Virus record (IMG/VR): IMGVR_UViG_2547132272_000016
Coordinates: 1 to 10,257 of that record
Origin: a virus
Lineage: Duplodnaviria; Heunggongvirae; Uroviricota; Caudoviricetes
Length of the DNA: 10,257 nucleotides
Direction: 5' to 3' (one strand)
In this document: positions 5,487 to 8,853 of the stretch, piece by piece
Position numbering within the stretch: the first letter of the stretch is position 1
How the letters are laid out: each line of letters starts with the position of its first letter
The notes under the pieces: generated by a model
What the model saw: the letters and a program-made list of their open reading frames with translations, nothing else
What the model was told of the DNA's origin: nothing
Databases searched by the model: none
Position numbers and translations under genes: made by a program

Positions 5487-5686
5487 CTGCGTGGCTCCTG
5501 TACTTGTCGGATAAGATTCACCCGCGCCACGTTGGTGGCGCAGAAATAAGTGCCGTCAGTGAGGTAGATGTGGTGCGCATCCTTTTCCGAACGATGTTTG
5601 TCGATAGTGGTAATCAGGCGTTCGTCGACCTCGTATTCACGTCTTCTGGAGGTGAAACGAACGACGGTAAATTGCTTAATTGCCAT
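5483..5686 (-). CDS. Hypothetical small protein (67 aa)
   Basis: ATG with GGGAG-type Shine-Dalgarno; overlaps the upstream gene's stop by 11 nt. Confidence 0.55.
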   Translation of the reverse strand: MAIKQFTVVRFTSRRREYEVDERLITTIDKHRSEKDAHHIYLTDGTYFCATNVARVNLIRQVQEPRR

Positions 5687-6002
5687 TACACTCCCTTGCT
5701 TTATGTCCGTGTTTGAGCTTTTCTATTTCTTCTTTTTGTTCTTTTAATATTCTTATGGCTGTAAAAACATTAAAGCCCATAAAATGTGCTCTGTTCGCTA
5801 GTGGAATGCTGGTACCTTTGTTAGCTATATCATCTTCAATATCAGTGAAATACTGACGTATTTCTTCTAGCGCGGCGCAGAGTTTTGTGAGATCTCGCCC
5901 TACATCATAATACGCAGTCCTTAGTATTTCTTGATTTGTCCTGAGCATGCTAACCTCATGTTTATATATGCGGATACCTCCGCGAGTGCGGATTGTTTTC
6001 AT
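5676..6002 (-). CDS. Hypothetical protein in an AT-rich segment (108 aa)
   Basis: ORF in a visibly lower-GC stretch (about 5700-6060) than the flanking genes; weak Shine-Dalgarno. Looks like an acquired insert within the operon. Confidence 0.45.
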   Translation of the reverse strand: MKTIRTRGGIRIYKHEVSMLRTNQEILRTAYYDVGRDLTKLCAALEEIRQYFTDIEDDIANKGTSIPLANRAHFMGFNVFTAIRILKEQKEEIEKLKHGHKARECNGN

Positions 6003-6037: not shown

Positions 6038-6151
6038 TTATTCGTCAGAGAAAAAACGCTCAATCTTTTTCACTGAATGAATAATTCGCATAATGCCAAT
6101 GGTGCAGACCACCGAAATAATCAGAATAAGCCATGACATAAATATACTCAT
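6038..6151 (-). CDS. 37-aa hydrophobic single-pass membrane peptide, not in the supplied ORF track
   Basis: Minus-strand ATG at 6151 with GGGGAA Shine-Dalgarno 7 nt upstream, overlapping the upstream gene's stop in an ATGA. Translation: MSIFMSWLILIISVVCTIGIMRIIHSVKKIERFFSDE, a ~20-residue hydrophobic core then a basic tail. The track's 6060-6263 ORF is in a different frame. Confidence 0.45.
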   Translation of the reverse strand: MSIFMSWLILIISVVCTIGIMRIIHSVKKIERFFSDE

Positions 6152-6390
6152 GCGATATTCCCCAGTTTATATGGTTCAATGCGAACCCCGTATTCTGTGT
6201 CCCGGACAAGTTCGGAAAGCTCGTTAATCGCATCCAAATCGTCAGCGTAAAAGGCCACGTCATAAAGGCTTCTGATTGCCCTTGCTAATGAATCATAGGC
6301 CGCGTGTTCTGCCTGGACTCCTGATGTGTTTAAGCGAAAATGAAAACGCTCAAGTGCTTTATTGACGAGAGTCTTGTATTCCTGGTCCAT
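6148..6390 (-). CDS. Hypothetical acidic small protein (80 aa)
   Basis: ATG with AAGGG Shine-Dalgarno; tightly spaced with neighbouring genes. Confidence 0.55.
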   Translation of the reverse strand: MDQEYKTLVNKALERFHFRLNTSGVQAEHAAYDSLARAIRSLYDVAFYADDLDAINELSELVRDTEYGVRIEPYKLGNIA

Positions 6391-7182: not shown

Positions 7183-7650
7183 ATGGAATTAGATGCTTTT
7201 GTGTGTCTGCGAATTTTTGAAAAACACTGCGAGCGAGTTGCTGAATCCTATCGTGATGTGCTGGATAAAGAAACAGCCAACTCAGCATTTGTTGCTACTC
7301 GAGCATTAATTCTCCTTAAATTGGATTTGCTACTTGTCGAGTATCGAAGAAATATTGATTCCAAGTGTGTAGTCCTCTTCGGAAAAAATGTGCTTTATCA
7401 TTATCTTTTCACCCAAAAGGGTGTTTCATTGTCTGATGCCAAAAATATGTGTCTCCATGACATACTTATTGTTCTCTGGAATGATATTAATGCATATGTA
7501 ATACCAGAGCATGTATCCGAGCGTATCCAGATTCTTTATAAGCACGAGCTCTCATCTCCAATGCCTGATTTAAGTTATGAAGATGAAAGTCTGTTGCACT
7601 TTAAGGATTCTGCTTGGGATTTTTATCCTGCCGATACACGACTGAATTAA
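7183..7650 (+). CDS. Accessory protein of unknown function (155 aa), opposite strand to the early operon, low GC
   Basis: ATG at 7183 with AAGGAG Shine-Dalgarno 6 nt upstream (the track ORF extends upstream only via a TTG). AT-rich codon usage unlike the flanking phage genes. Its 3' end overlaps the convergent 202-aa gene by about 47 nt. Confidence 0.6.
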   Translation: MELDAFVCLRIFEKHCERVAESYRDVLDKETANSAFVATRALILLKLDLLLVEYRRNIDSKCVVLFGKNVLYHYLFTQKGVSLSDAKNMCLHDILIVLWNDINAYVIPEHVSERIQILYKHELSSPMPDLSYEDESLLHFKDSAWDFYPADTRLN

Positions 7651-8812: not shown

Positions 8813-8840
8813 CATATGTGGTGTTAATCTACACATATGT
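8813..8840. promoter_or_regulatory. Candidate repressor operator: CATATGTG-N11-CACATATG (also two direct CATATGT copies 20 bp apart)
   Basis: The two half-sites flank the proposed -10 of the leftward early promoter, analogous to P2 C operators flanking the Pe -10 and 186 CI operators at pR. Confidence 0.4.
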
Positions 8841-8853
8841 AGGAGTTTGTCAA
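8826..8853 (-). promoter_or_regulatory. Candidate early lytic promoter (Pe-like), transcribing leftward toward cox
   Basis: Perfect -35 TTGACA on the - strand (8853-8848), 16-nt spacer, -10 TAGATT (8831-8826). The -35 abuts the C start codon, so the early transcript would be antisense to the C 5' end. Confidence 0.4.

Follow-up and report, generated by a model that had tools for sequence, protein, structure and literature searches.

In coliphage 186, the small accessory genes fil and dhr follow apl and cII in the first part of a P2-family early lytic operon, with a regulatory RNA/terminator element and gene A farther downstream, and overexpression of Fil blocks cell division. Lambda Kil, Rac KilR, Qin DicB, T7 Gp0.4, SPO1 gp56 and Caulobacter SidA are likewise very small proteins, each of which binds a host protein, and such modulators of division or of the envelope are often expressed early or during the SOS response. 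Of these, SPO1 gp56 and SidA cross the membrane once, whereas lambda Kil, DicB and Gp0.4 are not transmembrane (TM) proteins. The chromosome of Escherichia coli itself encodes inner-membrane regulators of about 30–50 aa with known partners (MgrB, AcrZ, MgtS, SgrT and CydX), which are independently regulated and work by packing their helix against a larger membrane protein. In the type I toxins Fst, Ldr, TisB and Hok, a charged tail follows a short hydrophobic helix. T4 Imm and Sp and HK97 gp15 block the entry of DNA from other phages, and most exclusion genes of this sort are expressed from the prophage.

The window analyzed here, a stretch of 10,257 nt, comes from a P88-like (Xuanwuvirus, Peduoviridae) P2-family Escherichia prophage. 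An ENA metagenome contig (L011) matches it at 100% identity. A segment of 2.3 kb containing the gene of interest, a 37-codon open reading frame (ORF), shares 99% identity with Escherichia albertii NBRC 107761, and identity of the window to phage P88 and numerous E. coli prophages is 84–88%. The plus strand carries an integrase gene and a gene for an HTH C-type repressor, both divergent from cox/apl. On the minus strand, a cox-like gene is followed by a 202-aa gene, a DUF4761 gene, a 92-aa gene, a DUF4754 gene and the 37-aa ORF (Table 1), and beyond these lie a 90/108-aa gene, a 67-aa gene, a gene for a MarR-type wHTH protein, an Ead/Ea22-like gene, an Ash-like gene, the gene for the GpA replication endonuclease and a ParM-like gene. 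The last of these, at 82–1041 on the minus strand and directly after the gpA replication gene, encodes a ParM/StbA-like partition ATPase (phrog_691, 1.2e-89). In contig L011 a Plasmid_stab_B-like gene comes next, and plasmid-type segregation functions are thus found in an integrated P2-like prophage.

Table 1. Features of the 37-aa ORF and its surroundings, in window coordinates.
Feature	Position	Strand	Remarks
Pe-like early promoter, TTGACA-16-TAGATT	8826..8853	minus	5′ of cox-like gene, facing C-repressor gene; consensus match only
DUF4754 gene, upstream partner, 80 aa	6148..6390	minus	predicted three-helix bundle; peptide gene always next
Spurious 67-aa ORF (track ORF, other frame)	6060..6263	minus	stops in relatives
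Shine-Dalgarno-like GGGGA within last codons of DUF4754 gene	6159..6163	minus	8 nt 5′ of ATG
ATGA start/stop overlap with DUF4754 gene	6148..6151	minus	present in every related locus, divergent subtypes too
Putative small membrane protein gene, 37 aa (P88 gp07 family)	6038..6151	minus	stop codon 6040–6038 included
Predicted transmembrane helix, codons 3–21	6089..6145	minus	W7, G19 invariant; small residues 13 (S/A), 17 (A/T) conserved
Amphipathic mixed-charge tail, codons 22–37	6041..6088	minus	predicted cytoplasmic; last 4 residues vary
T6 run, codons 32–34	6051..6056	minus	1-nt deletions in or beside run give 45-aa alleles
Conserved hairpin/palindrome ATCCGC-N4-GCGGAGG, 5 bp	5977..5993	minus	about 40 nt past peptide stop, at junction with variable genes

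The original prediction, which was made from the window alone, had placed the ORF within an early operon, and this description agrees with its position in a P2-like layout, where a Pe-like promoter and a cox-like gene precede it. Early operon is a fair label for the setting, because the block DUF4761–92 aa–DUF4754–peptide lies directly 3′ of a cox- or apl-like switch gene in P88 and in the UTI89 and O157:H7 prophages. In the window, a 155-aa ORF on the plus strand (7183–7650) opposes the early operon, residing between the 202-aa gene, whose 3′ end it overlaps, and the DUF4761 gene. It has a weak PHROG match (phrog_5286, 1.2e-5), is called as a gene in relatives and may be a moron. Since this opposing ORF separates the promoter-proximal genes from the block, read-through from Pe is an assumption in the window. 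Promoter-like matches around the 37-aa ORF are no commoner than in shuffled sequence.

Read from 6151 to 6038, the ORF begins with ATG, has a GC content of 34% and specifies the 37-aa product MSIFMSWLILIISVVCTIGIMRIIHSVKKIERFFSDE; its predicted extent is confirmed and its strand is minus. Its start codon (6151–6149) shares bases with the TGA (6150–6148) of the upstream gene, forming the ATGA overlap that had been proposed, and the partner is an 80-aa protein that matches Pfam DUF4754 over its full length (E = 4.7e-41). The model of this partner has a pLDDT of 89, and its fold matches are generic only. The claim of a good Shine-Dalgarno (SD) sequence survives in part: GGGG(A) is present at a suitable spacing, but its duplex with the 3′ end of 16S rRNA (−5.5 kcal/mol) is of moderate strength, adequate rather than strong, falling in the top 13% of all same-strand ATGs where the neighboring genes range from −3.8 to −7.9 kcal/mol. 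Divergent subtypes of the gene keep a purine-rich equivalent (GAGG, AGGAG or GAGGAG), though the C-terminal residues of their DUF4754 proteins differ.

All 114 related loci examined have the ORF and keep its start and its ATGA overlap: 103 of them carry DUF4754 (103/103 positive), and 11 more were fetched with the divergent DUF4754 proteins of L098 and L094. This constancy bears out the proposed translational coupling and also answers the suggestion that the reading frame be followed in related prophages, where it is kept throughout. The larger 67-aa ORF that an ORF track lists at this position is another matter: its frame contains stops in 70 of the 92 close loci and has no coding signature. 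The original prediction had considered the track ORF to be in the wrong frame, and the comparison indicates with high confidence that the 37-aa ORF is the coding frame and the 67-aa ORF spurious.

Substitution patterns point in the same direction. Pooled over 37 unique 37-codon alleles, the Nei-Gojobori dN/dS ratio is 0.24 in the ORF frame, whereas both alternative sense frames give 1.1–1.4; the value is 0.32 in a single antisense frame, the one with the same wobble positions, although no ORF spans it. Parsimony changes, counted on a neighbor-joining tree of 72 unique DUF4754-plus-peptide sequences, number 62/26/123 at the first, second and third codon positions of the peptide gene (chi-square p = 1.4e-15), parallel to the 124/110/310 of the DUF4754 gene. 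Within the peptide, Gly19 has undergone 8 synonymous and 0 non-synonymous changes, and Trp7 and Ile23 are invariant. An exhaustive profile search recovered three divergent 41-aa subtypes (P0104, P0105 and P0106), each of which follows a DUF4754 gene whose product is just 28–39% identical to that of the window and each of which has the ATGA overlap. Between subtypes, synonymous differences are near saturation (pS 0.45–0.81), while pN is 0.20–0.30, and dN/dS is 0.13–0.37 compared with 0.34–4.9 in control frames, where values are mostly near or above 1. Given the conserved frame and overlap, the codon-position pattern and the low dN/dS, the comparative evidence identifies the 37-codon ORF as a real, selectively conserved protein-coding gene.

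Among the close loci, length variation arises from 1-nt indels near the 3′ end of the gene. In these 92 loci, the product is 37 aa in 86, 45 aa in 5 and 30 aa in 1, the single short allele arising from a +1 change in the upstream A-run (6065–6069) and the long ones from deletions in the T6 run or beside it. Such homopolymer indels occur at L018, L021, L050, L086 and L087, in several allele backgrounds. The frameshifts affect about 5% of alleles and replace the last 4–8 residues. The 45-aa alleles P0047 and P0049 are real variants, since they occur on dozens of contigs. Frameshifted alleles may mean either that the extreme C-terminus is dispensable or that some copies of the gene are decaying.

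The predicted product has an N-terminal hydrophobic segment, residues 3–21, with a Kyte-Doolittle 19-residue mean of 2.55; among the 80 window ORFs that start with ATG and have 30 aa or more, just 2 reach a mean of 2.5, the 37-aa ORF being one of them. AlphaFold2 (AF2) models residues 2–35 as a single continuous helix (pLDDT 88), and the original description of one hydrophobic helix is consistent with both results. The tail, RIIHSVKKIERFFSDE, had been called basic, and it does contain four K/R and one H; it also contains three D/E, so that its net charge is only +1 and mixed charge is the better description. Its hydrophobic residues are spaced 3–4 apart, which makes it amphipathic. Across subtypes, the conserved positions of the TM segment are S6-W7, S/A13, A/T17 and G19, and those of the tail are R/K22 (replaced by Q in a few alleles), I23, I24, K28, I30, E/D31 and F34. 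The window peptide matches the resulting family motif, SW...G...(R/K)II..K.IE..F with an N-terminal TM helix.

From the positive-inside rule, for which a net charge of +1 is a weak signal, the N-terminus would be periplasmic and the C-terminus cytoplasmic. The face of small residues on the TM segment, together with its invariant glycine, suggests a helix-packing interface. A lipoprotein or a cleaved signal peptide was considered and rejected: residues 1–21 contain no K/R, and Cys16 is not conserved, subtypes P0104 and P0106 having F or M in its place.

The gene was thought at first to be unannotated, which does not hold. The exact peptide exists at NCBI as “MULTISPECIES: hypothetical protein [Escherichia]”, its counterpart in phage P88, gp07 (YP_009113050.1), is annotated as “membrane protein”, and a close relative in UniRef is called “Prophage membrane protein”. 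PGAP annotates the gene in E. coli chromosomes, including those of O157:H7 (WP_000021655.1) and UTI89 (WP_000021656.1), and a further RefSeq hypothetical protein of 37 aa, WP_001363442.1, belongs to P88-like prophages. Gene callers and curators have arrived at the gene independently of each other. Compared with P88 gp07 and these RefSeq relatives, the window peptide is 81–84% identical over its full length (tblastn E about 1e-12), with the same length, the same place after DUF4754, the same ATGA overlap and no substantive difference. Profile searches connect it to the family clusters, 41-aa subtypes included, at E = 1.5e-20 to 2e-9. By these comparisons, the window peptide is classed as an allele of the family of 37–41 aa that comprises P88 gp07 and the “prophage membrane protein”.

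Of 5426 complete E. coli genomes, 1362 (about 25%) carry the gene, O157:H7 and UTI89 among them, and among deposited phages it is carried only by P88-like phages and by Citrobacter phage phiSM. A protein homologue search, queried with the natural 41-aa allele P0020, and an exhaustive profile search over 1.84 billion representatives were carried out; the latter returned the family alone, in 18 clusters at 50% identity, and no distant relatives beyond it. All members found come from Escherichia and close enterobacterial relatives. A scan of species-representative genomes gave only E. albertii and one “Vagococcus” contig (L104; NZ_JBQPOM010000071.1, Vagococcus sp. WN89Y). The early region on this Firmicute-titled contig is of the usual Escherichia P88-like kind and includes the 37-aa gene, which probably reflects contamination or mis-binning.

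Searches of Pfam, PHROG, NCBIfam, PADLOC and the PDB gave no meaningful match for the peptide, even at permissive E-values. The Pfam scan at E ≤ 10 yielded just DUF2975 (0.066) and PET117 (0.13), both far below cut-offs, and PADLOC at E ≤ 1 matched neither the peptide nor its neighbors. Literature searches turned up no paper that names the peptide sequence, its accessions or DUF4754, and no functional data under Xuanwuvirus, P88 or CP-933T; the P88 paper concerns tail fibers.

Like 186 Fil and Dhr, the window peptide is encoded by a small accessory gene in the first part of a P2-family early lytic operon, but Fil is 75 aa, twice as long, is hydrophilic over its N-terminal two-thirds and has no N-terminal TM helix. 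A local similarity of IMRIIHSV to IIRIVHFV hinted at homology to Fil, which was rejected at an hhalign probability of 1.5% over 8 aligned columns; P2 Orf78 and 186 Dhr were also dismissed as counterparts, neither being hydrophobic. The peptide shares its predicted single-pass character with SPO1 gp56 and SidA and not with lambda Kil, DicB or Gp0.4, and sequence, profile and Pfam searches gave no relationship to Kil-like, division-inhibitor or holin families. A holin-modulating role does not fit the location of the gene, which lies between cox and gpA rather than in a lysis cassette beside endolysin/spanin genes, and the product has no Pfam or PHROG holin match. In size, single TM helix and short cytoplasmic tail, the predicted product resembles the MgrB/AcrZ class, from which it differs in being phage-borne and operon-coupled.

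Downstream of the peptide gene, the hairpin is directly preceded by AAAAC and is kept in most lineages despite different downstream genes. Its pairing is maintained at 98%: two pairs have changed from CG to UA in a compensatory manner, and two others are G-U when read on the sense strand. Its folding-energy z-score is only −1.3. The hairpin was rejected as an intrinsic terminator of the operon, the sense strand having no T-run; it is terminator-like on the opposite strand only, and such matches are not enriched. It has no Rfam match and may be either an RNA element or a DNA operator. In one lineage (L107–L114) the hairpin is missing, and a second small hydrophobic ORF, MKNVKAIHTIATVWVIFQVSALIWLALKIWE, resides about 15–110 nt after the 41-aa peptide gene.

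The peptide gene and the hairpin form the end of a conserved block, and the hairpin marks a break in similarity. The closest prophages (L004–L010) are 99.8% identical to the window on the right of position 5974 and about 94% identical on the left of 5697, which delimits a mosaic junction at approximately 5698–5974; between its edges, these prophages have genes of 137 aa and 109 aa where the window has the 90/108-aa gene. This 108-aa ORF (5676–6002, minus strand) probably starts at the ATG at 5948, giving 90 aa. An SD sequence, GAGG, is found at that position (−6.3 kcal/mol, compared with −1.5 at ATG 6002), and the 54 nt upstream of it contain the conserved hairpin and are non-coding in relatives. 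The identical contig L011 calls the gene as 90 aa, whereas PGAP takes the long start in L001.

Several explanations of the locus other than a membrane protein that modulates the host can be weighed against these observations. That the ORF is a chance product of an AT-rich spacer, kept by linkage or by constraint on the DNA or RNA, is strongly disfavored and the least probable of them. An ORF of this size is indeed not beyond chance by itself, as 124 ORFs in these 10 kb are 30 aa or longer, and some alleles are frameshifted; it is the comparative evidence, not ORF size, that marks the ORF as more than chance. The third-position excess and second-position deficit of changes fall in exactly the 37-aa frame, dN/dS is well below 1 only there and in the wobble-sharing antisense frame, the frame outlasts the saturation of synonymous sites, and start, overlap and SD are kept in 114/114 loci. 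Very improbable, too, is a regulatory small ORF whose translation is what matters, ribosomes moving up to the hairpin so as to prevent Rho polarity or tune how the variable downstream genes are processed or translated, in its extreme form a MifM/SecM-like arrest peptide that senses membrane insertion. The compensated hairpin about 40 nt past the stop in most lineages, and the position of the ORF at the end of the conserved block just before the mosaic junction, would suit such a role. Yet the amino-acid sequence is under purifying selection, TM-specific features included; the distance from stop to hairpin varies (41 nt in 37-aa types, 27–28 nt in 41-aa types, 16 nt in frameshift alleles); the L107–L114 lineage keeps the peptide while lacking the hairpin; the SD of the next gene lies outside the hairpin and is not sequestered; and the folding energy is ordinary. 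The fixed geometry and SD-masking structure of an arrest or leader peptide are accordingly not found at the locus.

Two further explanations accept the membrane protein and assign it a different task. A membrane-damaging toxin would oligomerize in the inner membrane and depolarize or permeabilize it, thereby shutting off the host or aborting competing infections. Its gross architecture would be that of the Fst/Ldr/TisB class, and the conserved small-xxx-small face with its invariant glycine fits self-association, as the AT-rich composition of the ORF also fits a toxin gene. Type I toxin genes, however, differ from this one, which is coupled to its upstream neighbor inside a long operon and has no promoter, long 5′ UTR or antisense RNA of its own; Pfam at E ≤ 10 gave no match to Hok, Ldr, Fst or holin families, Rfam gave none in the region, and early depolarization would hurt the replication of the phage itself unless tightly limited. 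A toxin is therefore considered unlikely. A slightly smaller chance is given to superinfection exclusion, in which an early small inner-membrane protein would stop the DNA of other phages from entering. The predicted small inner-membrane product of a temperate phage, the prevalence of the gene in E. coli and its place at the edge of the mosaic junction, beside variable cargo genes, are in keeping with that function, but the gene belongs to a lytic early operon that is expected to be silenced in lysogens by the C/CI repressor, has no PADLOC match and is part of the conserved core rather than of the variable cargo. Computation cannot separate a membrane toxin or superinfection exclusion from division inhibition in the style of 186 Fil, lambda Kil or SPO1 gp56.

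The reading that probably accounts best for the locus is that of a P88 gp07-family gene, coupled to DUF4754, whose product is an early inner-membrane protein that packs against a host protein or against itself. The gene is the last cistron of the conserved block DUF4761–(92 aa)–DUF4754–peptide after the cox/apl switch gene, and ribosomes ending translation of DUF4754 would reinitiate at the overlapping ATG, aided by the SD embedded in the last DUF4754 codons. The peptide would thus be made together with DUF4754 when the early operon is derepressed, upon infection or induction. It is predicted to be a 37-aa single-pass inner-membrane protein (TM residues 3–21) with an interfacial Trp7 and a small-residue face at S/A13, A/T17 and G19, its 16-residue amphipathic tail lying at the cytoplasmic membrane surface. 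The favored mechanism is that the TM helix would pack against a host inner-membrane protein, or against another copy of itself, and in this way modulate an envelope process during early lytic development, for which cell division, transport and the entry of other phages are candidates. The peptide may also act with, or tether, the three-helix DUF4754 protein. Its role is probably non-essential, that of an accessory or host-takeover factor.

That the adjacency of DUF4754 and the peptide is kept down to 28% DUF4754 identity counts for this reading of a coupled, helix-packing membrane protein. At one locus, L100, the DUF4754 is of the window type but the peptide is of the P0104 type, and this mixed pairing speaks against a tight mutual adaptation of the pair. 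In L100 (GCA_900536625.1, 1–2795), the block is flanked upstream by MuA-/MuB-like transposase genes, rather than by int, C and cox, and appears to be either a hybrid element or a prophage with a Mu-like insertion. A more specific proposal, speculative and with only a modest chance of being right, is that DUF4754 and the peptide of 37–41 aa constitute a two-part host-takeover module, in which the peptide would sit in the membrane as effector or anchor and target one particular machine of the E. coli inner membrane, for instance the divisome or a transporter that competing phages exploit.

The finding amounts to a well-supported gene call for a putative membrane peptide and will not surprise a specialist. 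Annotation systematically overlooks small membrane proteins or leaves them “hypothetical”, and this one is under selection while belonging to no curated family; its prevalence and clear selection give it moderate appeal as an experimental target. If the two-part module were real, the peptide would represent a new family of small membrane inhibitors encoded by phages, one that about one-quarter of E. coli genomes carry, O157:H7 and uropathogenic strains among them. If the peptide does modulate a host membrane machine, it could serve as a tool or reveal a target of the Kil/SidA/MgrB type, and this would provide the first function for the conserved DUF4761–DUF4754 early block of P88-like phages.
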